The notes under the pieces were generated by a model, which did no database searches, was not told the origin of the DNA, and saw nothing but the letters and a program-made list of their open reading frames with translations. Shown piece by piece: positions 49,740 through 63,656 of a stretch of 64,000 nucleotides of DNA. The stretch's first letter is position 1; every line of letters starts with the position of its first letter. The position numbers and the translations under genes are program-made. This stretch comes from a virus: IMG/VR virus record IMGVR_UViG_3300045988_141150; one strand, given 5' to 3'.

Positions 49740-50079
49740 AATAAAAAAAAATTTTTTCCCGAAATACACCCCCGCCCTATAAGGTTCTAACTTGTTTATT
49801 CTCTGAGAGTATACCAGCCTTACTCTCGCTCTTTTGCGGAACGCAAGACCCCATCCCGCATAAATGCCCCGGTAAACGTTGCTCGGCTCGCTGGCGGTAG
49901 TGGCGAGCCGAGTTTTATAAAAATCAGCAGTTTGCACAAATTTCTCGCCGAAACTTCGTCATAATGCACAAACATCAAAATGCCCGAAACTACGCCATCA
50001 CATTTGGGTAAAATGACTATTGACAATCCAGTAGCCATGTGCTATACTTGTATCATCAAAAAGAAAGAGGTAAATCAAA
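49740..50079 (+). repeat. partial, diverged copy of the early intergenic cassette (TTTTTTCCC box, GC hairpin, GCACAAA box, promoter)
   Basis: hairpin gctcggctcgc..gcgagccgag (49881-49913) followed by gagtttt; ttgcacaaattt box; ttttttccc at 49751. Confidence 0.4.
50020..50048 (+). promoter_or_regulatory. consensus promoter
   Basis: TTGACA-17-TATACT with TG extension (tgtgcTATACT). Confidence 0.55.
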
Positions 50080-50445
50080 ATGAAGAACATTTCCAAAATC
50101 ATCACCATGGCCATTGCTATCATTCTCTCCGTGTCTTTCTTTGGCCCGTTCCACGACCACACAACCGCGGAAGCCTGTGAGGAAGCGCCCCAGTCCTACG
50201 ACCTCTCGGTCATTGAGAATTGGTGCGGTTCAGGCACGGAGCGCGGAAGTATCCGTTTCGTCGGCGCAGAGGTCTATGAGCGCGAGGGCGATACACTGAC
50301 GCTCATTGATGAGCAAGGCAATCTGTGGGACGTGGAAGCACTCAACATTGATGACAACGACTTCTTGCTCTTGTGGATTAACGACAATGACACTGACACT
50401 GTGGAAGATGATACAATCATTAAGGTATGGAGAGAGGCTTACTAA
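50080..50445 (+). CDS. secreted or membrane-anchored protein with an N-terminal signal peptide (121 aa)
   Basis: RBS AAGAGG; hydrophobic N-terminus MKNISKIITMAIAIILSVSFF; acidic. Confidence 0.55.
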   Translation: MKNISKIITMAIAIILSVSFFGPFHDHTTAEACEEAPQSYDLSVIENWCGSGTERGSIRFVGAEVYEREGDTLTLIDEQGNLWDVEALNIDDNDFLLLWINDNDTDTVEDDTIIKVWREAY

Positions 50446-50476
50446 GTCTCTCTCTTTCTTGCGGATCGGCGAAGAT

Positions 50477-50494
50477 TGTTAAAAAATTAACAAG
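50477..50494. promoter_or_regulatory. perfect 18-bp palindrome TTGTTAAAAAATTAACAA (candidate operator or activator site)
   Basis: centre lies 29.5 bp upstream of the -35 box at 50515; identical copy at 50899 with identical spacing. Confidence 0.45.
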
Positions 50495-50514
50495 CAAAGA
50501 AGAGTAAAAAACTC

Positions 50515-50543
50515 TTGACAAATGCGCAATGATGTGCTACAAT
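50515..50543 (+). promoter_or_regulatory. consensus promoter
   Basis: TTGACA-17-TACAAT (tgtgcTACAAT). Confidence 0.55.
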
Positions 50544-50573
50544 GTAGATACAATAAGAAAGGGGAATACTCAG

Positions 50574-50864
50574 ATGACTAATAAGAATTTTTATAATGCT
50601 CTCAAAGCAGAAAAGGAACGGTTGATGAACGAAAGCAAGCAGGCATCCCGCGACTGCCAGATTAAGCATGGTGAGATGTCAAAGGCATGGAACATTGTCA
50701 ATGCCCTTGAAAGCTTGGGTAAGTTTGGCACGCAGGAACTCAGCAACGCGTATGATAACTATGAGGAAGCCAGCTACGCAAGTATGTTAGCAGACAACCA
50801 CTTCGATGACATTGATGAAGCCATTGATAAGATAAATGGATTGATGGGTCTTTACGAAGAATAA
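50574..50864 (+). CDS. small acidic protein (96 aa)
   Basis: ATG with AAAGGGG RBS; TAA stop. Confidence 0.55.
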   Translation: MTNKNFYNALKAEKERLMNESKQASRDCQIKHGEMSKAWNIVNALESLGKFGTQELSNAYDNYEEASYASMLADNHFDDIDEAIDKINGLMGLYEE

Positions 50865-50888
50865 GGGAGCAGTAATGCTCCCTTTCTA
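50865..50888 (+). terminator. rho-independent terminator
   Basis: gggagc-agtaat-gctccc then ttt. Confidence 0.5.
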
Positions 50889-50898
50889 ACGGCGTAGA

Positions 50899-50916
50899 TT
50901 GTTAAAAAATTAACAA
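50899..50916. promoter_or_regulatory. second copy of the palindrome TTGTTAAAAAATTAACAA
   Basis: identical sequence; centre 29.5 bp upstream of the -35 box at 50937. Confidence 0.45.
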
Positions 50917-50936
50917 AGATTTTTCTCAAAAAGGTC

Positions 50937-50970
50937 TTGACAAATCAGTTAGAATGTGGTATTCTATAAT
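50937..50970 (+). promoter_or_regulatory. consensus promoter
   Basis: TTGACA-17-TATTCT overlapping TATAAT. Confidence 0.5.
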
Positions 50971-50994
50971 CACAAAGGGAAAGGGGAAAGAAAA

Positions 50995-51204
50995 ATGATT
51001 TATGGCATTGTTTATTATACTAAGGGCGGTCAGGGCTATCTCTTCCAGCAAGCGTTCGAAGAACAGCGCGCTATGGAGATTGCAGGTAAGATGAACGACT
51101 TACTCGCGACAGGTGCTACGATGTATAATGATAAGTCCTATGGCAAGCTCGACTTGCGGAACGTTGAGTATTTCACAGTTGAACCCAGTAGCGAAATGTA
51201 TTAA
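50995..51204 (+). CDS. small protein (69 aa)
   Basis: RBS AAAGGGGAAAG; TAA stop. Confidence 0.5.
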   Translation: MIYGIVYYTKGGQGYLFQQAFEEQRAMEIAGKMNDLLATGATMYNDKSYGKLDLRNVEYFTVEPSSEMY

Positions 51205-51208
51205 GGGC

Positions 51209-51236
51209 GGGAGCGGGCTCCCCGCTCTTTCTCTTG
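51209..51236 (+). terminator. rho-independent terminator
   Basis: gagcggg-ctcc-ccgctc followed by tttctctt. Confidence 0.5.
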
Positions 51237-51327
51237 CGCCGTGGGGCGCGTGTAGAGCGTCCCAGCCCGAACTTTATCACAGTAAAGCATTAAAGCAAAA
51301 TTTTTTCCATTTTTTGCCAAAAACCAC

Positions 51328-51356
51328 TTGACATTCCTATCCCGAAATGCTATAAT
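51328..51356 (+). promoter_or_regulatory. consensus promoter
   Basis: TTGACA-17-TATAAT (tgcTATAAT). Confidence 0.55.
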
Positions 51357-51389
51357 AGTATCATCAAAAGAAAGAAAGAGGTAAATCAA

Positions 51390-51512
51390 ATGTCTATTCA
51401 CGATGGTCTTGTTCTTCTCGCTATCTATGTTGGTGTTATCGGCGCGGGCGCGCTCATCGAATACGTGGAGCACCGCGTAAAGAGAGCGGTTCATCGCAGA
51501 AAGAGAAGTTGA
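51390..51512 (+). CDS. hydrophobic micro-protein (40 aa, single transmembrane helix with basic tail)
   Basis: RBS AAGAGG; MSIHDGLVLLAIYVGVIGAGALIEYVEHRVKRAVHRRKRS; below the ORF-track size cut-off. Confidence 0.4.
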   Translation: MSIHDGLVLLAIYVGVIGAGALIEYVEHRVKRAVHRRKRS

Positions 51513-51530
51513 AAAACTTCTCTTTTTTTA
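51502..51530 (+). terminator. rho-independent terminator
   Basis: agagaagtt-gaaaa-aacttctct then T7. Confidence 0.5.
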
Positions 51531-51540
51531 TAAAAAACAC

Positions 51541-51574
51541 TTGACAAATCCAACAGCCGGTGCTATACTATAAT
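51541..51574 (+). promoter_or_regulatory. consensus promoter driving a transcript of about 140 nt with no convincing ORF
   Basis: TTGACA-17-TATACT/TATAAT; transcript begins tTGTCAAGAGGGG. Confidence 0.5.
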
Positions 51575-51726
51575 TGTCAAGAGGGGAAGAGATAAGTTAC
51601 TTCCCAAAGGGTGTGTGGCAAGTAGCCATTTCCTTTGATAAAACGCTTAGTTGGAGCGACCAGACAGGGCGCGCACTGTCCGCAAAAGTAGAGAATAAAA
51701 AAATTCCAACTTCTCAAAAAAACCTC

Positions 51727-51755
51727 TTGACAGACCCCTTAGAGTGTGATACAAT
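51727..51755 (+). promoter_or_regulatory. consensus promoter flanked by the 9-bp inverted repeat CTCTTGACA ... TGTCAAGAG
   Basis: cCTCTTGACAgacccc..TACAAT..aTGTCAAGAGg. Confidence 0.5.
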
Positions 51756-51759
51756 AAGG

Positions 51760-51813
51760 ATGTCAAGAGGCAGACAGGAGCGAACAACCTCTCCCCAATG
51801 CGTAGTTGGGTGA
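51760..51813 (+). CDS. leaderless micro-ORF MSRGRQERTTSPQCVVG (17 aa)
   Basis: ATG 5 nt after the -10 box with no RBS; one of a family beginning MS(R/G)G. Confidence 0.25.
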   Translation: MSRGRQERTTSPQCVVG

Positions 51814-51859
51814 AGTAAAACAAAATCTCCCTACCGAACAAAAAAGTTCAAAAAACCTC

Positions 51860-51888
51860 TTGACAAACCCCTTAGAGTGTGATACAAT
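51860..51888 (+). promoter_or_regulatory. consensus promoter driving the tRNA-like RNA
   Basis: cCTCTTGACAaacccc-17-TACAAT. Confidence 0.5.
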
Positions 51889-51900
51889 AAGGGTACAGAT

Positions 51901-52012
51901 GGCGGTGAGGTAGAACGGTTCTACTTCCACAAAGATGGCTGAGATACAAAAGTGTCGCTCACTTGGAAACGTTCGCTATTGGAAAATGTGGGTTCAACTC
52001 CCACCACCGCCT
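51901..52012 (+). ncRNA. tRNA-like small RNA (about 112 nt): 7-bp acceptor stem, D-arm with GG, canonical TTCAACT T-arm, but an aberrant 34-nt anticodon region
   Basis: ggcggtg pairs with caccgcc; D-arm gtag-aacggtt-ctac; T-arm gtggg-ttcaact-cccac; own promoter; no ORF; stem ttcca/tggaa (25-29 with 64-68) encloses 34 nt; no CTA triplet in the loop. Confidence 0.35.
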
Positions 52013-52032
52013 CAAAATTTTTTGAAAAAACA

Positions 52033-52061
52033 CTTGACAAATCCAAAAGTAGATGTTATAA
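52033..52061 (+). promoter_or_regulatory. consensus promoter
   Basis: TTGACA-17-TATAAT (tgtTATAAT). Confidence 0.55.
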
Positions 52062-52093
52062 TGTAGATACAATAAGAAAGGGGATAAAAACCA

Positions 52094-52356
52094 TGACTAC
52101 TTACAACATTCTCACTATTGGCCCTTCTCGTGAACCGAAGCTCGCGGGCAAGTTCAACGTTGCGGATACTGAAAACTTCCTTGACCGGTTAGAGGAAACG
52201 CTCTACATTCTCTTTGAATTAGAGCCGAAATCCCGCGAATGGAAACGCGAATTTCTCAAACATCTTTTTGCGGAATTCACTTATCACTTTTGCGAAGATT
52301 CCCGCGTTGAAAAGCAAGGCAACAATATTATCGTTTATGAAGAAAATGAGGGCTGA
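52094..52356 (+). CDS. hypothetical protein (87 aa)
   Basis: RBS AAAGGGG; TGA stop. Confidence 0.55.
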
Positions 52357-52375
52357 AAAAGCCCTCATTTTTTTT
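52348..52375 (+). terminator. rho-independent terminator
   Basis: gagggct-gaaaaa-gccctc then T8. Confidence 0.55.
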
Positions 52376-52396
52376 CAAACTTTTTTCAAAAAACTA

Positions 52397-52428
52397 TTGA
52401 CATTTACTGCCCTAAGTGGTATTATAAT
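52397..52428 (+). promoter_or_regulatory. consensus promoter
   Basis: TTGACA-17-TATTAT/TATAAT. Confidence 0.55.
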
Positions 52429-52472
52429 ATCAGAAAGGGAAAGGAAAATCCCGAACACCAGAAAGGTTAGCT

Positions 52473-52664
52473 ATGGATACTTTCGAAATGTATTACGAGA
52501 AATTCATGAAGATGCGCAAGGCTGACATTATTCGCGAGGGTCAGACTTGGGATATTTGGGCAAACTGCCAAAGCACTGCCGATAGCCTGATGAAGTGGAC
52601 AAAGCCCGTTCTTGCGAGAGTTCTTGCTGGACGCCTGGACCGTTTGGAAAAGCGGGGCTACTAA
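52473..52664 (+). CDS. hypothetical protein (63 aa)
   Basis: RBS AAAGG; TAA stop. Confidence 0.5.
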   Translation: MDTFEMYYEKFMKMRKADIIREGQTWDIWANCQSTADSLMKWTKPVLARVLAGRLDRLEKRGY

Positions 52665-52680
52665 GCCCCGCTTCTTTCTT
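52650..52680 (+). terminator. rho-independent terminator
   Basis: aagcggggc-tacta-gccccgctt then ctttctt. Confidence 0.5.
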
Positions 52681-52691
52681 GAAAAAAGTTC

Positions 52692-52720
52692 TTGACAAAT
52701 CTCGAATCTATGGTATAATA
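52692..52720 (+). promoter_or_regulatory. consensus promoter
   Basis: TTGACA-17-(tgg)TATAAT. Confidence 0.55.
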
Positions 52721-52749
52721 AGAGTATAAAAGGAAAGGGGATAAACAAA

Positions 52750-52989
52750 ATGACTTTGGACATGATTAAAAATGTAATTGGCACGGTAAAAGGCGCGCTG
52801 ATGTTCTATGAGGGGAATGGCGTCGAAGTGATAAACGAAAACACTTGCGGTCGCTATCTCAAAGACCGCAAAGGTCGCATGACTTTGAATGGTGATGTGT
52901 TAGACGCAAGCGAAGAGTGGGTGCTGGGATTGCCGGTCAGCGATTTGAAAGCCAGAGATAACGTTCTCATTATTTATGTTGATGGCTAA
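52750..52989 (+). CDS. hypothetical protein (79 aa)
   Basis: RBS AAAGGGG; TAA stop. Confidence 0.5.
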   Translation: MTLDMIKNVIGTVKGALMFYEGNGVEVINENTCGRYLKDRKGRMTLNGDVLDASEEWVLGLPVSDLKARDNVLIIYVDG

Positions 52990-53004
52990 AATTAAATTTT
53001 TTGA

Positions 53005-53250
53005 ATTAAAAATCTCCCCAAAAATGGGGAGATTTTTTTGTACATTTTATCTATTGACAATCCCAAAACTTCATGGTATAATCGGCCGGCGCGCGAACGG
53101 ACCTGGCGCGCCGAGTTTTTGTCAATAGGCGGGTTGCACAAATTTTTGGGGCAAATCTTTGTGCATAATGTCAATAGACAGAATCCCGAATTGGTGCTAT
53201 ACTATAATCACAGTAAGGGAAGGAAAACCTACCAAACCGGAAAGGGATAA
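53005..53250 (+). repeat. early intergenic cassette, short type: terminator, promoter P1, GC hairpin plus T-tract, GCACAAA box, promoter P2
   Basis: terminator 53009-53040; P1 TTGACA 53045 with TATAAT 53068; hairpin cggcgcgc..gcgcgccg 53078-53104 then agttttt; P2 TAGACA-17-TATACT 53166-53194. Confidence 0.6.
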
Positions 53251-53254
53251 CAAC

Positions 53255-53563
53255 ATGATTAACATTCGTTCTATTCTCAAACTCGCTGAAAATGACGGTC
53301 TGACCCTCAAACATGGCAAGAAGGTCAATTACAAGTCCGGCTGGCAGGTCGCCACTAATGGCGTTGAATGTAAGACCGCCCGCGAAGCCATTAACGCGGT
53401 CAAGGAATATGGCGGCAACTGCGGCGTGTGGTTTGCGAACGGCATTTATTATGTTGACAAGTCCAAGAGGGTGCAGACCAAGAAGCAGGCGCTTGAAATC
53501 GGCAAGGCGTGCAACCAAATCAGTGTATATGGCTGGGCGCGCGGCAATCTGGCTTACTGCTAA
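53255..53563 (+). CDS. hypothetical protein (102 aa)
   Basis: true start at the internal ATG 53255 with AAAGGGA RBS; TAA stop. Confidence 0.5.
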   Translation: MINIRSILKLAENDGLTLKHGKKVNYKSGWQVATNGVECKTAREAINAVKEYGGNCGVWFANGIYYVDKSKRVQTKKQALEIGKACNQISVYGWARGNLAYC

Positions 53564-53573
53564 AAAATTAAAT

Positions 53574-53609
53574 AGAGGGCTTGACAAAACAAGCCCTCTA
53601 TGCTATAAT
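53574..53609 (+). promoter_or_regulatory. promoter whose -35 box sits in the loop of a 7-bp hairpin (agagggc-TTGACAAAACAA-gccctct)
   Basis: TTGACA 53581-86, 17-nt spacer, TATAAT 53604-09. Confidence 0.5.
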
Positions 53610-53641
53610 AAAGGCACAATAAAGGAAAGGGAGAAAACAAC

Positions 53642-53911
53642 ATGGAAATTAAATATGCTCACGAAATGGCGGCTATCGCTAAGGACATCCGCACCGCCAA
53701 GCGCGCCAAAGATACTGCTACGGCCCGCGCCTATCTTGAAGAAAACCTGATGAAAGATATTGAAGACCACGCGGAAAAAGGCGAGAATTATCTGTCTCGC
53801 TGTCTCGTTGCCATTGAAGATGAAGCCGTGAAAGAAGCCTTAAAAAATCTTTTGCGGAATTATGGCTATACAACTTCTTATTCAAACGGCGTTCTCACCG
53901 TAAGGTGGTAA
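53642..53911 (+). CDS. hypothetical protein (89 aa)
   Basis: RBS AAAGGGAG; TAA stop. Confidence 0.55.
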   Translation: MEIKYAHEMAAIAKDIRTAKRAKDTATARAYLEENLMKDIEDHAEKGENYLSRCLVAIEDEAVKEALKNLLRNYGYTTSYSNGVLTVRW

Positions 53912-53916
53912 GGTAA

Positions 53917-53946
53917 AAGAGGGAAAATTTTTCCCTCTTTTTCTAA
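53917..53946 (+). terminator. rho-independent terminator
   Basis: agagggaaaa-ttttt-ccctcttt then ttc. Confidence 0.5.
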
Positions 53947-53954
53947 AAAACTTC

Positions 53955-53983
53955 TTGACAAATCCAAAAGCAGATGTTATAAT
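53955..53983 (+). promoter_or_regulatory. consensus promoter
   Basis: TTGACA-17-TATAAT. Confidence 0.55.
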
Positions 53984-54015
53984 AAAAGCACAATAAAGGA
54001 AAGGGGAATAAATTA

Positions 54016-54087
54016 ATGGAATGTCCTTATTGCGATGGAAAGTGCGGAACACATGCTCAATGCGTTAAATGCGGAAAAGGGAAATAA
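54016..54087 (+). CDS. zinc-ribbon micro-protein MECPYCDGKCGTHAQCVKCGKGK (23 aa)
   Basis: RBS AAGGAAAGGGG; four Cys arranged as CxxC..CxxC; overlaps the RBS of the next gene. Confidence 0.35.
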   Translation: MECPYCDGKCGTHAQCVKCGKGK

Positions 54088-54089
54088 AA

Positions 54090-54446
54090 ATGGGAACGGA
54101 ATTCTTAATTATTGGCGGAATTTTTAGCGCAGTCCTTGCGCTGTTTGTCTGCCTTGTCTGTTGGTGCCGCATGGAAAAGTCTCACCCAATAGTCAGATTG
54201 TTAGTTGGTATCCTTATTTCGTGCGCCATCGGTTATGGCATGACGGGCGCGTTAGTCGCAGAACATAATGCCGATAGAAAAGCATGGAACAACGGCTATT
54301 GCTCCATTTGCGGAAATGAAATGGAATTTGTAAATGCTTCTCATGGTCGGCATGGAACAGTTTATTACTATTGGTATTGCGATGAGTGCGGTCATACGTT
54401 AGAGTTAACTTCTAACTTTGCAAAGGGGGAAACAGATAATGAATGA
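54090..54446 (+). CDS. membrane protein with two transmembrane helices and a C-terminal zinc ribbon (118 aa)
   Basis: internal ATG 54090 with GGGAAATAAAA RBS; CSICGN..CDECGH. Confidence 0.5.
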   Translation: MGTEFLIIGGIFSAVLALFVCLVCWCRMEKSHPIVRLLVGILISCAIGYGMTGALVAEHNADRKAWNNGYCSICGNEMEFVNASHGRHGTVYYYWYCDECGHTLELTSNFAKGETDNE

Positions 54447-54645
54447 AAAAACTATCCCACAGGCTTTGAGAGAACAGGCAGACGCCATTGAAAAGTTAGC
54501 TCAAAGAATTGCGAAAGAAAGCAAGGAATTTCCAGACGAGGAAGACCGCAGAGACGGCGGAGAACTTGCGGACGCTTTATTTGCGATTCAATCAAAGCTC
54601 CGCTATGAGTACTCTTGGATTGCGGAAACCATGTGGGACGTGTAA
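54439..54645 (+). CDS. small acidic protein (68 aa)
   Basis: ATG 54439 overlaps the upstream gene by 8 nt (operon); TAA stop. Confidence 0.5.
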   Translation: MNEKTIPQALREQADAIEKLAQRIAKESKEFPDEEDRRDGGELADALFAIQSKLRYEYSWIAETMWDV

Positions 54646-54646
54646 T

Positions 54647-54688
54647 TTTCAGGCGAGATTTAATTATCTCGCCTGAAAATTTTTTTCA
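54647..54688 (+). terminator. rho-independent terminator
   Basis: ttttcaggcgagat..atctcgcctgaaaa then T7. Confidence 0.55.
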
Positions 54689-54729
54689 AAAAACTATTGA
54701 CAAACTCACCCCGTTGTGGTATTATAATC

Positions 54730-54798
54730 ATGTCAAGAGGAAGTGGTAAGCCTCTTGAAGTAGTGAACAAATTTCTCATACTATGGTTTGCGCGGTAG
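54730..54798 (+). CDS. leaderless micro-ORF MSRGSGKPLEVVNKFLILWFAR (22 aa) that ends in TAG
   Basis: ATG immediately after the -10 box; one of only two early-region reading frames terminated by TAG. Confidence 0.25.
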   Translation: MSRGSGKPLEVVNKFLILWFAR

Positions 54799-54830
54799 CC
54801 GATAATTACCGCGCCCTTTCTATTTCATTT

Positions 54831-54848: not shown

Positions 54849-54893
54849 TGATTGTTCGGCCGGGCGCGCACGGACCACGCGCCCGGAATTTCA

Positions 54894-58367: not shown

Positions 58368-58396
58368 AAAACCATCAAAGGAAAGGGGCAAATAAA

Positions 58397-58573
58397 ATGG
58401 AAATTGAAAAGAAATTCCAGGTTGATTATAGCGGTAAAAATCCTTGGGACCAGTATTACGACAATCGGGTTAATTTTGATTCCGAAGAAAAAGCCGATGC
58501 TTTTATCCAAAAGTTGATGGAAGATGAAAATATCTATCAAATTTTCAAAACCATTACTGCCAGATACAGATAA
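58397..58573 (+). CDS. hypothetical protein (58 aa)
   Basis: RBS AAAGGGG; TAA stop; below the ORF-track size cut-off. Confidence 0.45.
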   Translation: MEIEKKFQVDYSGKNPWDQYYDNRVNFDSEEKADAFIQKLMEDENIYQIFKTITARYR

Positions 58574-58811
58574 AATTTGAGGTGAAAATTCACCTCATTT
58601 TTTTGGTTATTTTGCCTATTGACAAAAATCCAATAGTGTGATAAAATGGCCGGCCGTTTACGTATGCCACGGCCGGAACTTCAATTATACCAGAAGCCAG
58701 CAAATTTGTCAATCGGCAAAATGCACAAAAATCTAATTAGTTTTTTTCCCAAAATGTGCTTGACAAAATCCAGCAGATGCGCTATAATGTATTTAGAAAG
58801 AGGTGAAAAAC
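58574..58811 (+). repeat. early intergenic cassette, long type: terminator, P1, GC hairpin, reverse promoter, GCACAAA box, TTTTTTCCC box, P2
   Basis: terminator 58576-58606; P1 TTGACA 58619 with TAAAAT 58642; hairpin ccggccg..cggccgg 58650-76; reverse promoter 58684-58712; P2 58760-58788. Confidence 0.6.
58684..58712 (-). promoter_or_regulatory. reverse-strand perfect consensus promoter converging on P1 across the hairpin
   Basis: plus strand ATTATA-17-TGTCAA; the predicted minus transcript is hairpin plus UUUUAU (about 40 nt). Confidence 0.5.
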
Positions 58812-58970
58812 ATGGATAATTTCAAGAAAGCCACTGTAAAAGATTATACTGCTTGGGATTTGAATTGTAGAAACATTTGCCCTCACGATAAATCTTCTAA
58901 TAAACTGGAAAAGCGTATCAAGCGCAAGGCTCGCAGAAGTCTTAAACAAAATTTGAAAAAAAAGTATTGA
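58812..58970 (+). CDS. basic micro-protein (52 aa)
   Basis: RBS AAGAGGTG; its stop codon overlaps the -35 box of the next promoter. Confidence 0.4.
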   Translation: MDNFKKATVKDYTAWDLNCRNICPHDKSSNKLEKRIKRKARRSLKQNLKKKY

Positions 58971-58995
58971 CAAAATACAGCAAATGCGCTATAAT
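58967..58995 (+). promoter_or_regulatory. consensus promoter
   Basis: TTGACA-17-TATAAT (gcgcTATAAT). Confidence 0.55.
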
Positions 58996-59027
58996 GTAAG
59001 TACAGTAAAGGAAAGGGGTAAACACCA

Positions 59028-59528
59028 ATGAAAATCACTTACATCAAGTCTCACGTTGTGACCACTCGACGCTCTATCAACTTTGACATGGACGGCACTA
59101 TCGCTGACCTCTACGGCGTCAAGGATTGGCTCGCGCTTCTCCGTTCGGAAAATCCCACACCCTATCGGACTGCCGCTCCTATGTGCGATATGGCTGAATT
59201 GAATGAGGTTTGCGAACTTCTCCGCGCCGAGGGTTGGGAAATCAACATCATCACTTGGCTTTCCAAAGATTCGAGCGAGGAATACAAAAACCTCGTGCGT
59301 AAAGCAAAGCGTGCGTGGCTTGAAGAACAGGGCTTCCACTATGACCACTTCCACGGCGTCCAGTATGGCGCGACCAAAGCCGACAGCGTGCGCGACCGCT
59401 ATGACGTGTCCATCTTGGTTGACGATAATGAAAAGGTTCGGAATGGTTGGCACTTGGGCGCTACCATTGACCCGACCGCAGTAAACATTATCGAAAAACT
59501 TTCGGAACTTTTGGAGAAAAGGGCTTGA
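59028..59528 (+). CDS. HAD-superfamily 5'(3')-deoxyribonucleotidase-like phosphatase (166 aa)
   Basis: motif I INFDMDGTIADLYG (DxDGT); size and layout of the NT5C-type dNMP phosphatases common in phages. Confidence 0.55.
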   Translation: MKITYIKSHVVTTRRSINFDMDGTIADLYGVKDWLALLRSENPTPYRTAAPMCDMAELNEVCELLRAEGWEINIITWLSKDSSEEYKNLVRKAKRAWLEEQGFHYDHFHGVQYGATKADSVRDRYDVSILVDDNEKVRNGWHLGATIDPTAVNIIEKLSELLEKRA

Positions 59529-59553
59529 CAAAGCCCTACTCCAATGGTATAAT
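59520..59553 (+). promoter_or_regulatory. promoter with its -35 box in a hairpin loop (agggc-TTGACAA-agccct)
   Basis: TTGACA 59525-30, 17-nt spacer, TATAAT 59548-53. Confidence 0.5.
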
Positions 59554-59582
59554 AAATACATCAAATGAAAGGGGAAAATAAA

Positions 59583-59792
59583 ATGTTTGTTCTTTTAATT
59601 CTGCTGTCTCTCACAATTTCGTTCCTGCTTATCTCTGGTTTAGTTTGGCTTCTCTGTTGGCTTCTCCCTGCCATTGGTATCACCGCAATCGGCACTTTCA
59701 CCATCGTGTTCTCGTGGAAGCTGGCACTCGCAATTTGGATTATTCTCCTGCTTCTGAGCACTATCTTCCCGAGCGGTAGTAATAGGGGGTGA
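59583..59792 (+). CDS. small membrane protein (69 aa, two transmembrane helices)
   Basis: ATG 59583 with AAAGGGG RBS. Confidence 0.5.
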   Translation: MFVLLILLSLTISFLLISGLVWLLCWLLPAIGITAIGTFTIVFSWKLALAIWIILLLLSTIFPSGSNRG

Positions 59793-59795
59793 AAA

Positions 59796-59939
59796 ATGAT
59801 GCCTTATTTTTGGCTTACTCTTGGCGTTCTCGCCAAAGTGACCGGACGAACTGCCGGTGGTAATTATCGCTATGAAACGGTTGTCTCTAAGGAAATCGGA
59901 CTTGTGACCGCAGACTGGGTCAATACTCATCTGCTGTAA
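59796..59939 (+). CDS. micro-protein (47 aa) with a hydrophobic N-terminus
   Basis: RBS AGGGGGTG; TAA stop. Confidence 0.3.
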   Translation: MMPYFWLTLGVLAKVTGRTAGGNYRYETVVSKEIGLVTADWVNTHLL

Positions 59940-59957
59940 AAGAAAGGGGAAACAAAA

Positions 59958-60215
59958 ATGAAAGTAAATTTTGGCACTAAGGGTCAGGTTCAGATTATTA
60001 ACATTCTCAGCGGTGGCACATTCACCGACCCGCGCACCAATGGTAACGGTATGGGAATGTATCTCAAAATTGACAGCCATAACAACACGCCGTTTGTCCG
60101 GTCGAGAGGTTCGCAGTTTTGCTATGCTGTGAATCTTGAAACGGGTCAGATTCGCGAGTTCCCGCGCGAAAAGATGGTAACGCCAGTCAAGACCGAGGTC
60201 AATGTAATTGGCTAA
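59958..60215 (+). CDS. hypothetical protein (85 aa)
   Basis: RBS AAAGGGG; TAA stop. Confidence 0.55.
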   Translation: MKVNFGTKGQVQIINILSGGTFTDPRTNGNGMGMYLKIDSHNNTPFVRSRGSQFCYAVNLETGQIREFPREKMVTPVKTEVNVIG

Positions 60216-60451
60216 AAGAAAATCTCCCCAAAAATGGGGAGATTTTTTTGTTTACTTTGACTATTGACAAAGTTCCTTGAATGTGATATAATGGGCCGGC
60301 CGTTTCCGCGCGCTACGGCCGGAATTCACCATTATACACCCTGCCAGCATTTTTGTCAAGAGAAATTTCGCACAAATTTCAATTTTATTTTTTCCCGTTA
60401 TTTGGTCATTTTACCAATAGACAAATCAAGACCAATCTGTTATACTACATA
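60216..60451 (+). repeat. early intergenic cassette, long type; its terminator is identical to the one at 53009..53040
   Basis: terminator 60219-50; P1 60264-92; hairpin ccggccg..cggccgg 60296-60322; reverse promoter 60331-59; P2 TAGACA-17-TATACT 60418-46. Confidence 0.6.
60331..60359 (-). promoter_or_regulatory. reverse-strand consensus promoter
   Basis: plus strand ATTATA-17-TGTCAA. Confidence 0.5.
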
Positions 60452-60571
60452 ATGTCAGGAGGAAAGAGTAAGACCTACGGAAAGGCAGTTCCCTTGACCA
60501 TTATACCAGAAGCCGACACAAGGAATGTTCCAAGCGTGGCATGCCGAACAAACTTTCAAAAAAAAGTTTGA
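60452..60571 (+). CDS. leaderless micro-ORF MSGGKSKTYGKAVPLTIIPEADTRNVPSVACRTNFQKKV (39 aa)
   Basis: ATG 5 nt after the -10 box; related in sequence to the micro-ORF at 62767. Confidence 0.3.
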   Translation: MSGGKSKTYGKAVPLTIIPEADTRNVPSVACRTNFQKKV

Positions 60572-60579
60572 AAAACCCC

Positions 60580-60608
60580 TTGACAAACCGCTCGACTTAT
60601 GGTATAAT
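60580..60608 (+). promoter_or_regulatory. consensus promoter
   Basis: TTGACA-17-(tgg)TATAAT. Confidence 0.55.
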
Positions 60609-60639
60609 GAATACATCAAATGAGAGAGGTAAAAACAAG

Positions 60640-60669
60640 ATGACTTCTAATGCTCGCCCACCGCCTTAA
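60640..60669 (+). CDS. 9-codon micro-ORF MTSNARPPP ending Pro-Pro-Pro-stop (candidate leader peptide)
   Basis: RBS AGAGGTAAAAACAAG; a tandem related copy follows at 60721. Confidence 0.25.
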   Translation: MTSNARPPP

Positions 60670-60720
60670 AAACTGATTTGATTTCTTGACTTAAAGATTG
60701 TAGATAGAGGTATAAACAAG

Positions 60721-60753
60721 ATGTATAGTAATAAAGCTCGCGACCGCCCCTAA
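60721..60753 (+). CDS. 10-codon micro-ORF MYSNKARDRP ending Pro-stop
   Basis: RBS AGAGGTATAAACAAG; same context as the 60640 micro-ORF. Confidence 0.25.
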   Translation: MYSNKARDRP

Positions 60754-60771
60754 AAAAATTCGCAAAACCTA

Positions 60772-60800
60772 TTGACAACCTGCTCCGCATATGATATAAT
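60772..60800 (+). promoter_or_regulatory. consensus promoter
   Basis: TTGACA-17-(tga)TATAAT. Confidence 0.55.
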
Positions 60801-60851
60801 AACTACATCAAAGACAAGGACAGTCTCAAAAACCAGAAAGGAATTGATACT

Positions 60852-61226
60852 ATGGCTACTTCTACTACTAAGAAGCTCACTAAGCGTGACCGTTTCGAGG
60901 CTCTGCTCAAAATGTCCGAGGTTCAGGCAAATCCTGATATGGTGGCGTTCATCGAGCATGAGATTGAACTGCTCGCCAAGAAGAACGCGGGCGACAAGAA
61001 GCCCACGGCTAAGCAGATGGAGAACGACGCCGTGAAGCAGGTCATTCTGGACGAGATGATCGCAAACCCTGACAAGCTCTACACTGTAACCGAACTCATC
61101 AAAGGCGTTCCCGAACTTGCGGAGTATTCCAATCAGCGCGTTTCCGCTCTTCTGCGCCAGATGATTGACGCCAACGCGGTTGTCAAGACGGTTGACAAGC
61201 GCAAGTCCTACTTCTCCCTCGCGTGA
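60852..61226 (+). CDS. hypothetical protein, paralogue A (124 aa)
   Basis: RBS AAAGGAATTGATACT; about 70% identical to the protein at 63203..63580. Confidence 0.55.
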   Translation: MATSTTKKLTKRDRFEALLKMSEVQANPDMVAFIEHEIELLAKKNAGDKKPTAKQMENDAVKQVILDEMIANPDKLYTVTELIKGVPELAEYSNQRVSALLRQMIDANAVVKTVDKRKSYFSLA

Positions 61227-61233
61227 GGGCAAG

Positions 61234-61262
61234 GGCAGGGGATAAAAAAAATCCCCTGCCCT
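61234..61262 (+). terminator. hairpin with an A8 loop (gggcaggggat-A8-tcccctgccc), atypical terminator
   Basis: follows the paralogue gene; no 3' U-tract. Confidence 0.3.
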
Positions 61263-61274
61263 ATAAAAAAACTG

Positions 61275-61303
61275 TTGACAAACCAATAGCAAAGTGCTAT
61301 ACT
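61275..61303 (+). promoter_or_regulatory. consensus promoter
   Basis: TTGACA-17-(tgc)TATACT. Confidence 0.55.
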
Positions 61304-61325
61304 ATTATCAGAGGTTGAGAGAACG

Positions 61326-61355
61326 ATGGTAAATCTCAATCTACTTTTCCAATAG
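61326..61355 (+). CDS. upstream micro-ORF MVNLNLLFQ terminated by TAG inside the RBS of the exonuclease gene
   Basis: the TAG at 61353-55 overlaps the AGGAG RBS of the gene starting at 61367. Confidence 0.25.
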   Translation: MVNLNLLFQ

Positions 61356-61366
61356 GAGATGGTAAA

Positions 61367-62143
61367 ATGGGTATTGATAGGCGCAAAAACTACGGCATTA
61401 TGCTGGACACGGAAACCGCAAACACCATTCAAGACGGCGATAAGCTGGATATGTCAAATGTGCTTCCATACGACTTCGGCTGGGCGGTCATTGATTCCAA
61501 GGGAAATGTTTATGAAACTCATTCTTTTGTGAATCGCGATATTTTCTGCTACGAGCGCGACCTCATGCAGTCTGCCTACTACGCCGACAAAATTCCCCGC
61601 TATGTCGAGGATATTAAGAACGGCACTCGCATTATGGCTGACCTTTACGAAATTCGTCTTGCATTCTGTGAATGTGTCGAGCGTTATAACTGCTCTTTTG
61701 TCTGCGCTCATAATATGCGGTTCGACCTTAACGCCTGTAATAACGCGCAAAGATGGGATACGAAAAGCAAGTATCGCTATTTTTTCCCCTACGGCCTTGA
61801 AGTTTGGGACACGCTGAAAATGGCGCGACAGGTTATTGGCAAAATGCCCACTTACCGCGACTATTGCGAAAAGAATGGCTACAAGACCAAAAACGGACAG
61901 CTCCGTTTTACAGCAGAAATTCTTTACCGCTTTATCAGCGGTGAAGATAGTTTTGATGAGTCCCACACGGGACTTGAAGATGTCCTCATTGAAGTTGAGA
62001 TTTTGCGCTATTGCGTCCGACAGCACAAGAAAATGGAAAAGTCCCTTTTCAAAAATTCCACGGTGGAACGCCCTAAGCCTACCGAGTTTCAGCGCGCGCT
62101 CATGCGAAACATTAAGGAAAATCCTATGATAAACATGAGCTAA
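61367..62143 (+). CDS. DEDDh 3'-5' exonuclease (DnaQ / RNase T-like, 258 aa)
   Basis: Exo I motif IMLDTETAN, Exo II motif FVCAHNMRFDLN, Exo III motif SHTGLEDVLIEVEIL. Confidence 0.6.
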   Translation: MGIDRRKNYGIMLDTETANTIQDGDKLDMSNVLPYDFGWAVIDSKGNVYETHSFVNRDIFCYERDLMQSAYYADKIPRYVEDIKNGTRIMADLYEIRLAFCECVERYNCSFVCAHNMRFDLNACNNAQRWDTKSKYRYFFPYGLEVWDTLKMARQVIGKMPTYRDYCEKNGYKTKNGQLRFTAEILYRFISGEDSFDESHTGLEDVLIEVEILRYCVRQHKKMEKSLFKNSTVERPKPTEFQRALMRNIKENPMINMS

Positions 62144-62149
62144 AAAAAT

Positions 62150-62190
62150 AGGGAATAGGGCTTGACAAGTCCTATTCCCTATGGTATAAT
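62150..62190 (+). promoter_or_regulatory. promoter with its -35 box in the loop of a 10-bp hairpin (agggaatagg..cctattccct)
   Basis: TTGACA 62162-67, 17-nt spacer, TATAAT 62185-90. Confidence 0.5.
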
Positions 62191-62219
62191 CAATACATCA
62201 AATGAAAGAGGTGTTCCAC

Positions 62220-62498
62220 ATGACTGCTAAACAAGTCCTTTTTGTAGTCCCCGATGAAAATGACCCTCACATGGGCATTTTAATCAACCATGACTATGTT
62301 ATCTGCGCTGAATGCGGTGGCGTCTTTGAAGTCGATGAGGTTTTCATCATCAAGACCTATGACGTTTGGGTAAACTTTGAAGACGAAATTGCGGACGAGC
62401 TTGACCTGCTGACCGCAAAAGACATTGGCAAAGAGCTGAATAGCAAGGGAGAATCCGGTCGTTACGCATGGAAAGAAGCAATTAAGAGGGAGTTTTGA
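62220..62498 (+). CDS. hypothetical protein (92 aa) with a CxxC pair
   Basis: internal ATG 62220 with AAGAGGTG RBS; TGA stop. Confidence 0.5.
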   Translation: MTAKQVLFVVPDENDPHMGILINHDYVICAECGGVFEVDEVFIIKTYDVWVNFEDEIADELDLLTAKDIGKELNSKGESGRYAWKEAIKREF

Positions 62499-62520
62499 AA
62501 ATGGATTTGGATTTCCACCT

Positions 62521-62766
62521 GCTGGAATAAATAAAAAACTGCCCAAAAATGGGCAGTTTTTTTTTGTCTATTTTGCCTATTGACAAATGCGGATTTTTGT
62601 GATAAAATGGTCGGCCCGCTAACGCCCAAAGCGGGCCGAACTCACCATTATACCACGCCCCGCCAATTTTGTCAAGAGAAAAGTTGCACAAAAATGAAAA
62701 AAATTTTTTCCCGTAATTTGGCTATTCTGTCAATTGTATTCTGTGGGCAATCTGCTATAATAGATA
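62521..62766 (+). repeat. early intergenic cassette, long type
   Basis: terminator 62536-66; P1 TTGACA 62579 with TAAAAT 62602; hairpin tcggcccgc..gcgggccga 62610-38; reverse promoter 62646-74; TTTTTTCCC box; P2 with extended -10 tgcTATAAT 62756-61. Confidence 0.6.
62646..62674 (-). promoter_or_regulatory. reverse-strand consensus promoter
   Basis: plus strand ATTATA-17-TGTCAA. Confidence 0.5.
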
Positions 62767-62865
62767 ATGTCAGGAGGGAACAGTGAATTGCCGAACGGCT
62801 TCGCTGATGGGTGTGATAACTCGGTAACTGACCCGTTTTCAAAGAAATTTGAAATTCCCTCTTGA
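62767..62865 (+). CDS. leaderless micro-ORF MSGGNSELPNGFADGCDNSVTDPFSKKFEIPS (32 aa)
   Basis: ATG 6 nt after the -10 box; related to the micro-ORF at 60452. Confidence 0.3.
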   Translation: MSGGNSELPNGFADGCDNSVTDPFSKKFEIPS

Positions 62866-62890
62866 CAAACCCCTGCGAGTGTGCTACAAT
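62862..62890 (+). promoter_or_regulatory. consensus promoter flanked by the inverted repeat CTCTTGACA ... TGTCAAGAG
   Basis: TTGACA-17-TACAAT; aTGTCAAGAGgg at the start site. Confidence 0.5.
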
Positions 62891-62895
62891 AGAAA

Positions 62896-63009
62896 ATGTC
62901 AAGAGGGAGTAGCCCAAGAAATCCGAGGGCGCGCGACCTTGAGAAAGTACAGGAAGTAAACATAATACACCACGTTGTAAAGCCAAACGTTGAACGCGAA
63001 AGTGAGTGA
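62896..63009 (+). CDS. leaderless micro-ORF MSRGSSPRNPRARDLEKVQEVNIIHHVVKPNVERESE (37 aa); alternatively the 5' end of a small RNA
   Basis: ATG 5 nt after the -10 box; followed by about 90 nt of structured non-coding sequence. Confidence 0.25.
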   Translation: MSRGSSPRNPRARDLEKVQEVNIIHHVVKPNVERESE

Positions 63010-63123
63010 GAGTGAGCCAGCTATACTTGAAGCGATTTTCGCTGACAGATAGACTGAGCCAACGGGCAATACCTTATCCGTCAGGTCGGGGTAGTAATTC
63101 GTGTAAAAAGTTTGCGAAACCTC

Positions 63124-63152
63124 TTGACAAACATTTCAAAGTGTGGTACACT
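63124..63152 (+). promoter_or_regulatory. promoter
   Basis: cTCTTGACAaac-17-(tgg)TACACT. Confidence 0.45.
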
Positions 63153-63202
63153 TAATATATCAAAAGGGTAGCGACCTACCGCCAAAGAAAGGAATTGATA
63201 CT

Positions 63203-63580
63203 ATGTCTACTTCTACTACTAAGAAGCTCACTAAGCGCGACCGTTTCGAGGCTCTGCTCAAGATGTCCGAGGTTCAGGCTGACCCCGCCATGGTTGAGTT
63301 TATCAATCACGAGATTGACCTGCTGGCTCGCAAGAATGCCGGTGATAAGAAGCCGACCGCGAATCAGATTGCCAACGATGGTTACAAGGACATTATCTTT
63401 GCCGAGCTGTCCGCCAATCCTGACAAGCTCTACACTGTGACCGAACTCATTAAGACTGTGGACGGTTTGGGTGACCTCTCCAATCAGCGCGTCTCCGCTC
63501 TTCTGCGTCAGATGATTGAAGCGAACGGTGTCGAGAAGATTGTCGACAAGCGCAAGTCCTATTTCCGTCTCGCCCACTGA
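63203..63580 (+). CDS. hypothetical protein, paralogue B (125 aa)
   Basis: internal ATG 63203 with the same RBS context as 60852; about 70% identical to paralogue A. Confidence 0.55.
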   Translation: MSTSTTKKLTKRDRFEALLKMSEVQADPAMVEFINHEIDLLARKNAGDKKPTANQIANDGYKDIIFAELSANPDKLYTVTELIKTVDGLGDLSNQRVSALLRQMIEANGVEKIVDKRKSYFRLAH

Positions 63581-63586
63581 TTCAGC

Positions 63587-63616
63587 GGGAGCGCCTAAAA
63601 AAAATTAGGCGCTCCC
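63587..63616 (+). terminator. hairpin with an A6 loop (gggagcgcctaa-A6-ttaggcgctccc)
   Basis: same architecture as the hairpin after paralogue A. Confidence 0.3.
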
Positions 63617-63627
63617 AAAAATTTCTC

Positions 63628-63656
63628 TTGACATTTGCTAACGGCGGTGTTATAAT
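63628..63656 (+). promoter_or_regulatory. consensus promoter
   Basis: TTGACA-17-(tgt)TATAAT. Confidence 0.55.

Follow-up and report, generated by a model that had tools for sequence, protein, structure and literature searches.

The window analysed here is a 64,000-nucleotide (nt) stretch of the virus record IMGVR_UViG_3300045988_141150, which is contained in a 190,948-bp phage contig from the human gut, and the feature under study is a dense island of promoters of the sigma-A/sigma-70 type between positions 50020 and 63656. The island lies to the right of a point, at about 49.7-50 kb, where the GC content was observed to jump from 0.27-0.34 to 0.40-0.45, and the GC content at its third codon positions was 0.53. 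About 25 of its 41 listed promoters precede 33 protein genes in operons of one to four genes, seven start transcripts without a credible open reading frame (ORF), one of them a tRNA-like gene, and nine fire straight into a GC-rich hairpin without a gene behind it, four of the nine on the - strand. An earlier, sequence-only reading had assigned one promoter to each small gene; this describes many of the protein units, but it does not accommodate the operons, the seven RNA units or the nine dead-end hairpins.

The interval 50000-64000 was scanned with a promoter tool using dinucleotide shuffles as control, and 76 sigma-70-like sites were found as against 25.5 ± 5.0 in the shuffled sequences. Between 50020 and 63656 the tool scan returned 39 strong sites (20 matching the consensus at 12/12 positions, 14 at 11/12 and five at 10/12 with a TG), and a hand-curated list with exact coordinates contained 41 sites, 37 of them on the + strand; the count of about 38 near-perfect promoters made by eye in the sequence-only reading was thus not reduced by the scan. 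The perfect sites (TTGACA, 16-18 nt, TATAAT), of which only about 0.013 would be expected by chance as computed from base frequencies, comprised 16 on the + strand and four on the - strand, and every one of the 14 sites at 11/12 lay on the + strand with TTGACA and a 17-nt spacer. The 17-nt spacer, which had been called invariant, was present in 39 of the 41 listed sites but was not strictly so, since the perfect promoter at 52692 has a spacer of 16 nt; the second site outside this set (62734-62761) combines a weak -35 box with an extended -10 box. Among the 39 sites with the 17-nt spacer the -35 box was TTGACA in 35 and TAGACA in four, and the TG at -15/-14 was present in 36, in agreement with the TGn extension described earlier as usual. 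In the window from 1 to 48,500 only weak matches were found, save for a divergent pair at 48597 (-) and 48680 (+), and this scarcity is notable because the AT-rich DNA there should yield more chance matches. On the source contig the array continues to about window position 65,500 with three further promoters, after which the GC content drops.

When the promoters were aligned, a common order was observed, consisting of a T-run (the tail of the previous terminator), an A-tract at -10 to -5 relative to the start of the -35 box, c.cTTGACAaa, an unconserved spacer, TRTG (column frequencies T67, G64, T92 and G97%) and TAtAaT. Such a logo would correspond to a full Gram-positive (Bacillota) sigma-A promoter with all known strength elements included, an assignment that the alignment supports well. 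The -10 box ends 29-34 nt ahead of the ATG in most units, and a repeat finder independently recovered a cassette of 59-85 nt in 13-16 copies, running from the A-tract through the promoter and a leader of about 25 nt to GAAAGGGG/AGAGGT and the ATG. Ribosome-binding sites of both the AAAGGGG type, which had already been pointed out, and the GAGGT type were found. A stem-loop with a T-rich tail closes 18 of the 23 protein units, and in two of the other five (61226 and 63580) a hairpin that lacks the T tail was seen by eye; the stem-loop terminators noted earlier are thus present in most units. The hexamer of the -35 box was found in six cases to lie within the terminator hairpin of the preceding unit, for example aaagggcTTGACAaaagccc. 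The strength elements, the fixed distance from -10 box to ATG, the conserved hexamers and the high density together argue for sigmaA/sigma70 promoters of early genes, as had been proposed.

For a comparison of density, one and the same scan was applied to all benchmark regions and the counts were expressed per 13.6 kb. The island gave 20 perfect (12/12) sites and 34 at 11/12 or better, SPO1's host-takeover module gave none and five, the best window within the first 50 kb of phage RB49 gave four and 11, and the first 50 kb of T5 gave none and five, so that the promoter density of the island was 3-7 times that of SPO1, T5 or RB49. A sample of 115 arbitrary IMG/VR stretches (0.92 Mb), each picked for containing at least one exact TTGACA-N14-TGnTATAAT, was also considered; 99 of them held one match, 12 two, three three and one five, with a maximum of 0.53 per kb. 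The island holds 16 such exact matches (1.17 per kb), and the related contig L023 holds 25 (2.07 per kb). The extreme density noticed at first sight was therefore confirmed by like scans, and the island is the densest case within the comparisons made here.

Conservation of the promoters was followed in 267 orthologous promoter copies from 14 genomes. The -35 hexamer was 99.6% identical, the -10 hexamer 97.3% and the TRTG element 93.4%, as against 83.6% for the spacer and 80.5% for the base between TG and the -10 box, with flanks and coding sequence at 91-93%. The hexamers are under purifying selection and the spacers are not, and hexamers kept while spacers drift are the expected footprint of working promoters. 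The relatives were found to be mosaics of blocks of 75-94% identity interrupted by replacements, and 27 of 49 distinct breakpoints fell no more than 30 nt from a promoter core, where 12.4 ± 3.0 were expected (the promoter at 56703 is entered at 56695). In L023 and L024, whose marker protein is 54-56% identical, 30 and 29 perfect promoters were counted in about 12 kb, and in L023, L024, L026 and L027 only 3-5 of 31 island proteins had homologs; with promoter density kept and proteins mostly unrecognisable, it is the regulatory scaffold that is conserved and the cargo that turns over. Selection on the signals, their conservation across the clade and the turnover of cargo are all visible in these sequence comparisons, as is a clustering of breakpoints near promoters or in the intergenic DNA around them. 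A viral contig of about 130 kb, L151 (IMGVR_UViG_3300021387_000036), carries 12 perfect promoters in 4.5 kb at 1-4600, and those of its promoters that point in the opposite direction have spacers of 18 nt and run into GC hairpins. This array indicates that the architecture reaches beyond the relatives found by protein similarity.

The protein units occupy the island as follows. At its left end the promoters 50020-50048 (TTGACA-17-TGcTATACT), 50515-50543 (TTGACA-17-TGcTACAAT) and 50937-50965 (TTGACA-17-TGgTATTCT), all on the + strand like the others of this paragraph, drive the genes 50080-50445 (121 amino acids), 50574-50864 and 50995-51204, and a perfect promoter at 51328-51356 drives a gene for 40 amino acids (51390-51512). 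Beyond a group of RNA units, a perfect promoter at 52034-52062 serves the gene 52093-52356, the promoter 52397-52425 serves 52473-52664, and the perfect promoter with the sole 16-nt spacer (52692-52719) serves 52750-52989. The weaker promoter (P2) of an intergenic module described below, with a TAGACA -35 box (53175-53203), drives 53255-53563, and is followed by a perfect promoter at 53581-53609, whose -35 box lies inside the upstream terminator stem-loop 53573-53600 and which drives 53642-53911; another perfect promoter at 53955-53983 drives an operon of three genes (54016-54087, 54090-54446 and 54439-54645). A second module promoter P2 (TAGACA) at 54981-55009 precedes the gene 55049-55255, and the perfect promoter 55266-55294, with its -35 box in the loop of the upstream stem-loop, precedes a four-gene operon at 55325-56535. 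A third P2, the weaker TAGACA-17-TGgTAAGAT at 56703-56731, drives the genes 56758-57105 and 57098-57256, and the promoter 57272-57300 drives 57330-57803.

In the right half of the island, where the promoters of the protein units again lie on the + strand, the SpoVT/AbrB-like gene 57868-58320 is driven by the promoter 57809-57837 and the gene 58397-58573 by the perfect promoter 58339-58367, each with its -35 box in a terminator loop. Two perfect promoters without the TG follow, at 58760-58788 for the gene 58812-58970 and at 58967-58995, where the -35 box overlaps the upstream stop codon, for the HAD-phosphatase-like gene 59028-59528. A perfect promoter at 59525-59553 drives the three-gene operon 59583-60215, and the gene 60852-61226 (124 amino acids) has a perfect promoter at 60772-60800. 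The exonuclease-like gene 61367-62143 is served by the promoter 61275-61303, and the gene 62220-62498 by a perfect promoter (62162-62190) with its -35 box again in a terminator loop. The promoter 63124-63152, with an extended -35 box, drives the gene 63203-63580, and the last perfect promoter (63628-63656) drives a gene that starts at 63681 and runs past the end of the window.

TAG is absent from all 31 complete genes of the island, as a sense codon and as a stop alike; their stops are 18 TAA and 13 TGA, and the coding share of the island is only 65%. Nearly all of these genes are orphans, and family matches were obtained only for the AbrB/MazE-type domain, the HAD-phosphatase/5'-nucleotidase-like and the exonuclease-like proteins; in the orphan-gene test of the island a single Pfam domain was recorded for the called genes of L001 and L028. 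The HAD 5'-nucleotidase/PNKP-phosphatase-like gene (59028-59528) and the exonuclease-like gene (61367-62143) form a conserved core of the island across the clade. The genes 60852-61226 and 63203-63580 are paralogs whose products, of 124 and 125 amino acids, are 77% identical; ahead of each stand non-coding units as well as a long leader in which a small hairpin is conserved, and the family is one of only three kept in the distant relatives. A gene for 125 amino acids just beyond the window (L001 14170-14547) may be a third copy, and the C-terminus of the family looks, by eye, like a winged helix. A search (tblastn) of the 31 island proteins against SPO1 1-14000 gave no match. The closest bacterial relatives of the SpoVT/AbrB-like gene were found in gut Clostridia (Oscillospiraceae, Ruminococcus and Faecousia), and the host would probably belong to the gut Clostridia (Bacillota).

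Among the non-coding units, the tRNA-like gene at 51901-52012 (+) was the only one to pass the Rfam gathering threshold (tRNA, 37 bits; fold z-score -2.97), and sub-threshold Rfam matches to other families (STnc230, Phe/Leu leaders) were terminator look-alikes and were treated as chance. All four arms of the tRNA model (acceptor, D, anticodon stem and T) are present in this tRNA-like gene, but its anticodon-loop region has 50 nt in place of the 9 that the model expects, and some close relatives lack the gene. ARAGORN called no tRNA in the window, 51901-52012 included, nor in most relatives, and no convincing CUA anticodon loop, as the idea of an amber suppressor would have it, was found by eye.

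The other six non-coding transcripts begin with UGUCA(A/G)GAGG, and the decamer TGTCARGAGG occurs 11 times as against 0.07 expected. In five of the six units this decamer forms the 5' arm of an inverted repeat of 10-13 nt (pairs 51575/51723, 51761/51856, 60453/60576, 62768/62858 and 62897/63120), and its 3' arm, CC(T/C)CTTGACA, provides the next promoter with its -35 box. The sequence-only reading had noted an extended -35 box shared by several copies. Such a box was indeed present (CCTCTTGACA at 51723, 51856, 62858 and 63120; CCCCTTGACA at 60576), and only at promoters downstream of a non-coding unit; it is not simply a stronger promoter but the 3' half of a repeat begun by TGTCAAGAGG, the 3' arm of a stem opened by the 5' end of the upstream non-coding transcript.

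Three of these transcription units stand in tandem at the left, where the promoter 51541-51569 drives the unit 51575-51732, bracketed by TGTCAAGAGG...CCTCTTGACA, the promoter 51727-51755, with the extended -35 box, drives the unit 51761-51865, and the promoter 51860-51888, also extended, drives the tRNA-like gene. The promoter 54697-54725 produces a non-coding RNA at 54731-54814, with a 5' hairpin (TCAAGAGG/CCTCTTGA) and a terminator. Further right, a module promoter P2 (TAGACA) at 60418-60446 drives the unit 60453-60585 (TGTCAGGAGG...CCCCTTGACA). It is followed by a perfect promoter at 60580-60608 and then by two mini-ORFs of nine and ten amino acids, or a leader, at 60640-60753. The mini-ORFs, 60640-60669 (MTSNARPPP) and 60721-60753 (MYSNKARDRP), each have a good ribosome-binding site and lie between this perfect promoter and the next one; they might encode leader peptides or belong to a non-coding unit.

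A conserved structured RNA lies at 62768-62867 (+), behind the weak -35 box (TTGTAT) and extended -10 box (TGcTATAAT) at 62734-62761. It is closed by a stem of 13 bp and contains two inner stems and a 12-nt loop, AACUCGGUAACU, that is invariant. A pattern search recovered it from 11 viral contigs (L034-L044) as nine distinct sequences. The closing stem, in whose 3' arm the following promoter has its -35 box, showed one A-U to G-C compensation together with G-U wobbles that fit only an RNA of the + strand, and four compensatory pairs were found in an inner stem. Relatives with less than 50% identity in the marker protein keep the RNA at about 80% identity, and in them too it lies just upstream of the family of 60852 and 63203. 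The family often stands in tandem with other RNAs bracketed by TGTCAAGAGG...CCTCTTGACA, and it has no Rfam match. The next promoter (62862-62890, extended -35 box) drives the unit 62897-63129; its 219-nt part 62897-63115 showed almost no covariation, the relatives being too similar. When the six non-coding units were placed in a single alignment, no common structure was found and only the 5' motif was held in common. A reading of the TGTCAAGAGG...CCTCTTGACA units as elements resembling miniature inverted-repeat transposable elements was set aside, as their interiors are unrelated and the G-U wobbles point to RNA pairing.

Precedents exist for both ends of these transcripts. Shine-Dalgarno-like sequences act as 5' stabilisers in SP82 early RNA and in the STAB-SD of cryIIIA, and the AAGAGG/AGGAGG placed here at the extreme 5' ends of untranslated transcripts could be accounted for in the same way. 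RNase III processes the early RNAs of T7, and those of SP82 with the enzyme of Bacillus; processing of this kind could explain the closing stems, the likeness being that long-range or local stems flank early RNA units here as well. Unlike the transcripts of T7 and SP82, the 3' arm of the stem is here the -35 box of the next promoter.

The dead-end promoters belong to an intergenic module of about 220 bp, of which seven copies lie in the window (49850-50060, 52995-53215, 54800-55020, 56530-56745, 58570-58795, 60210-60460 and 62525-62775) and two beyond it, about every 2 kb. The order within the module is a bidirectional-looking terminator, a promoter P1 (ctaTTGACAa-17-TA(T/A)AAT), a GC-rich hairpin starting 1-5 nt past the -10 box, GAGTTTTT with a lone reverse -35 box or else a complete perfect reverse promoter, a spacer, and finally the weaker promoter P2, usually with a TAGACA -35 box, which drives the next unit. 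The first hairpin copy (49872-49918) marks the left edge of the island just past the GC jump and is followed by GAGTTTT. In the second copy the perfect P1 (53054-53082) fires into the terminator-like hairpin 53084-53117, which is followed by a T-run (T5; GAGTTTTTG). In the copy 54800-55020 the hairpin 54851-54895 (stem about 54860-54886) is met by a perfect reverse promoter, 54894-54922 (-). The fourth P1, with TAAAAT (56583-56611), again fires into a terminator-like hairpin (56614-56642) with a T-run (T6).

The remaining three copies in the window contain convergent pairs of maximal promoters (58619/58712, 60264/60359 and 62580/62675), the -10 boxes of which lie about 36-38 nt apart with nothing but the hairpin between them. 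In the first pair, P1 at 58619-58647 and the perfect reverse promoter 58684-58712 (-) face the hairpin 58650-58676; in the second, the perfect P1 60264-60292 and the perfect reverse promoter 60331-60359 (-) enclose the hairpin CCGGCCGT...ACGGCCGG at 60296-60322; in the third, P1 at 62580-62608 and the perfect reverse promoter 62647-62675 (-) enclose TCGGCCCGCT...AGCGGGCCGA at 62611-62640. The copies 53084 and 56614 show a GC-rich stem followed by a U-run (GAGTTTTT), and the convergent copies show only AAUUU or AUUUUA. The stems of the modules hold rare-cutter palindromes (GGCCGGCC, GGCGCGCC).

Across the relatives, 119 of 702 strict promoters fire directly into such a hairpin. In an alignment of 29 distinct hairpin copies the 8-bp stem was paired in 98.7% of cells, and 44 cells showed double changes as against 14.8 ± 2.7 in shuffles, none of 500 shuffles reaching 44; when the partner columns were slid against each other, pairing fell to 27-46%. 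It is clear from this covariation that the fold is under selection. In the distant relatives L023, L024 and L151 the theme recurs, the hairpins there being different and longer and lying for the most part behind reverse promoters. Mimicry of CRISPR repeats (an RNA anti-CRISPR) was considered for these hairpins and set aside, given that the stems differ between copies and covary and that the flanks are unlike the familiar repeat layouts. These modules, like the stem-closed RNAs, are conserved elements and are new.

The DNA to the left of the island is of a different kind. Its 48 kb contain few standard ORFs, and when TAG was read as sense, long ORFs of the - strand appeared, the longest two having 26 in-frame TAGs in 2584 codons and 80 in 2761. 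This module encodes the portal, the large terminase, and virion and tail proteins. Its last gene, 47489-48547 (-), matches the PHROG "sigma factor" family phrog_5767 (E = 9e-55), lies behind a perfect promoter (48597-48569, -) and contains two in-frame TAG codons, so that its synthesis would depend on suppression of TAG; this suppression could act as a timer of the late switch. The GC boundary may, as one possibility, mean that the early genes are tuned to the codon usage of the host. Just left of the island, at 49595-49708, three direct repeats of about 30 nt (CGTGATTTGAAATTGAAAATTGATTTAGAT) are spaced 37 and 47 nt apart and may represent iterons, the site of a regulator or a site connected with packaging. 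YonD_N and YonG_N Pfam matches were recorded in the late module (L028 803-2392 and 6173-7360; window about 40,900-47,450), and these SPbeta-type domains suggest a distant link to SPbeta-like phages. Neither half of the window matched any deposited phage by megablast, and 22 related IMG/VR contigs, several of them 160-197 kb long, carry the island.

Taken together, we consider it probable that the locus is an immediate-early island of host-takeover type, transcribed by the polymerase of the host, in which the promoter-terminator cassettes also serve as recombination patches; early timing, the use of host polymerase, the role in takeover and the mechanism of recombination are the parts that we infer. 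Under this explanation, unmodified host sigma-A RNA polymerase would recognise some 40-45 maximal-strength promoters in about 16 kb, most of them set in a standard cassette of about 85 nt with a UP-like tract, the promoter, a leader of about 25 nt, a strong Shine-Dalgarno sequence and the ATG. Most units would close with a stem-loop, often overlapping the next -35 box, so many short independent transcripts would burst out once the DNA enters the cell. The products would be about 35 small, mostly orphan proteins in the standard, TAG-free code together with small structured RNAs, and transcription would later go over to the sigma-like factor of the phage and to the late, recoded genes. The repeated promoters and terminators would offer patches of homology, through which cassettes could be swapped, lost and gained between relatives, as in the promoter-early stem-loops (PeSLs) of T4-type phages.

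Several points weigh against this explanation. The activity, timing and strength of the promoters are inferred from consensus and conservation alone, and the host from the type of signal and the relatives of one gene, which give only a hint. No homology was found between the island proteins and the early proteins of SPO1, T5 and RB49, and among the island genes only the SpoVT/AbrB-like, HAD nucleotidase-like and exonuclease-like ones give hints, weak at best, of a function in host shutoff. Nearly all intergenic DNA of the island lies near a promoter, which makes breakpoints "at promoters" inseparable from breakpoints "in intergenic DNA". No protein gene stands behind about 40% of the promoters, which lead to RNA-only units or dead-end hairpins instead, and a plain model of expressing many early genes leaves the nine hairpin-only promoters unexplained. 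The dead-end units and the stem-closed RNAs are thus beyond the reach of the host-takeover explanation alone; they fit the production of small RNAs, or a polymerase sink or insulator.

One of them, to which we give a serious though less than even chance, is that the dead-end promoters and the bracketed units make abundant structured RNAs that act on targets of the host or the phage, in roles such as RNA decay, defence or the TAG code switch. These RNAs would be GC hairpins of 35-45 nt (sense and antisense at the convergent promoters), stem-closed RNAs of about 100-230 nt and the tRNA-like RNA. The excess of double changes in the hairpins (44 against 14.8 ± 2.7) speaks for such a role, as do the compensatory pairs, strand-specific wobbles and invariant loop of the 62768-62867 family in 11 viral contigs, the 11 copies of TGTCARGAGG where 0.07 are expected, and the annotation of the T5 early region, which also has promoter-driven stable and tRNA-like RNAs; yet Rfam gives no family besides the tRNA model, and the other non-coding units show little covariation, their relatives being too similar, and share only the 5' motif. 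RNA production of this kind complements the host-takeover explanation and does not replace it. A broader form, which we offer tentatively and find somewhat more doubtful, is an early phage "RNA launch pad" of a new kind in which the promoters would themselves be structural parts of RNAs, tandem RNAs would each be closed by a stem with the next -35 box as its 3' arm, and the maximal, often convergent dead-end promoters would fire into covarying hairpins about every 2 kb and yield very abundant short and complementary RNAs or act as polymerase traps or insulators; such RNAs could join in host takeover or prepare the switch to the TAG-recoded late programme.

It is unlikely, in our view, that the array works as a sink for RNA polymerase, in which the nine dead-end units above all would capture and recycle host sigma-A holoenzyme and so starve the promoters of the host and gather the polymerase on the DNA of the phage. 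The promoters are near-maximal and very dense, nine strong ones end at a stable hairpin about 35-40 nt downstream without a gene product, three of these arrangements being face-to-face pairs, and the dead-end arrangement, which recurs at intervals of about 2 kb, is conserved with covariation. A bacterial cell, on the other hand, holds thousands of polymerases and one infecting genome only about 45 sites, so that a sink effect would need amplification of the genome. The covarying stems moreover indicate selection on a folded nucleic acid and not on polymerase binding only, and phages of the SPO1 type shut the host off with proteins (PMC6873191). Titration of host RNA polymerase would be compatible with the dead-end units, which do not demonstrate it; the idea is conjecture.

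Still less probable is a role in genome entry, where strong co-directional promoters at the leading end would let the host polymerase pull the genome in. Promoters A1-A3 of T7 are the model for entry driven by transcription. Here, 37 of the 41 promoters point one way, and the island begins abruptly at the GC jump beside the three 30-nt direct repeats. However, the long contigs are permuted and their ends coincide with repeats, a terminator after nearly every unit would keep the polymerase from travelling far, and the reverse promoters run against the direction of entry. Finally, an artefact, either a mis-joined piece of another genome or a selfish repeat that merely resembles a promoter, can hardly be maintained despite the GC step from about 0.29 to about 0.43 at 49.7-50 kb and the repeat-like behaviour of the motif, since the low-GC/high-GC junction is common to three independent assemblies and the island lies within 160-197-kb contigs of many samples, which argues against a chimera, the low-GC side shares the style of promoter and ribosome-binding site (48597, 48680), and the spacers differ while hexamers, TG, spacing and the distance to ribosome-binding site and ATG are fixed.

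If the host-takeover explanation holds, the principle of PeSLs and of host-takeover modules extends to large gut phages with TAG recoding that form an uncultured clade and whose hosts are probably Clostridia. The island supplies a natural set of about 40 Gram-positive promoters of near-maximal strength, with leaders and terminators to match, as well as about 35 candidate host-takeover proteins. It also sets a TAG-free, GC-richer early programme cleanly apart from a recoded, AT-rich late programme that includes the TAG-bearing sigma-like gene, and this split makes the idea of a code switch as timer directly testable.

Among known systems, the PeSLs of the T4-type phages RB49/phi1, PST and nt-1 offer the closest comparison; they are reported at a density of about 52 per 165-kb genome, with eight in 5 kb, and a subclass is described in which the -35 box lies inside the upstream stem-loop (Arbiol et al. 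2010, PMC2839356; Comeau et al. 2014, PMC4122927; the subclass in PMC2839356). In either system the cassette is a composite: an early promoter of sigma-70-type consensus is joined to an A/T tract on its upstream side and to a terminator in the form of a stem-loop. Both systems place the cassettes ahead of small orphan genes clustered in plastic regions, and both show stem-loops overlapping the -35 box or standing just after the -10 box (here in six and nine cases, respectively). Indels between close relatives fall at the cassettes in the PeSL phages; the breakpoints counted here lie near promoters or, inseparably, in intergenic DNA. The island differs in its phage lineage and type of host, which are unrelated, in its Gram-positive TRTG/extended -10 element and strong Shine-Dalgarno sequences, and in the many units that drive RNAs or nothing; the convergent pairs around a covarying hairpin and the RNAs closed by a stem with the next -35 box have no counterpart in the PeSL descriptions compared here. 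Its density is also much higher, 20 perfect sites being counted in 13.6 kb where the scanned RB49 stretch gave no more than four. No DNA match to deposited phages and no protein match to RB49 were found, and the structural module is different; given the unrelated lineage, the island is an analogue of the PeSLs and not a member by descent.

The host-takeover module of the Bacillus phage SPO1 (genes 37-60) lies in the terminal redundancy, and SPO1-type phages reach host shutoff by means of proteins (PMC6873191). SPO1 and the island are alike in having a block of about 12-16 kb of small early genes for host sigma-A polymerase, which for the island we regard as the probable enzyme, with promoters and ribosome-binding sites of the type of highly expressed genes and with phage sigma factors that take over later, or would do so here. 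In SPO1, however, the genes form about a dozen operons on both strands, and the island has a separate code regime, TAG-free beside recoded late genes, and a large RNA component. T5 resembles the island in its many strong host-type promoters with terminators, in promoter-driven stable and tRNA-like RNAs of the early region, and in an early gene of 5'-deoxyribonucleotidase type (AY543070 annotation); its pre-early dmp gene is paralleled by the HAD 5'-nucleotidase-like and exonuclease-like genes of the island, which recalls the degradation of host DNA. T5 differs in having at most about one annotated promoter per kb, none of them perfect by the scan, in its type of host, and in the absence of such hairpin modules. 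Set beside these systems, the island is real, strongly non-random and conserved, and is an extreme Gram-positive-style version of an early region of a kind known from phages, in which RNAs and dead-end promoters form an unexpected component.

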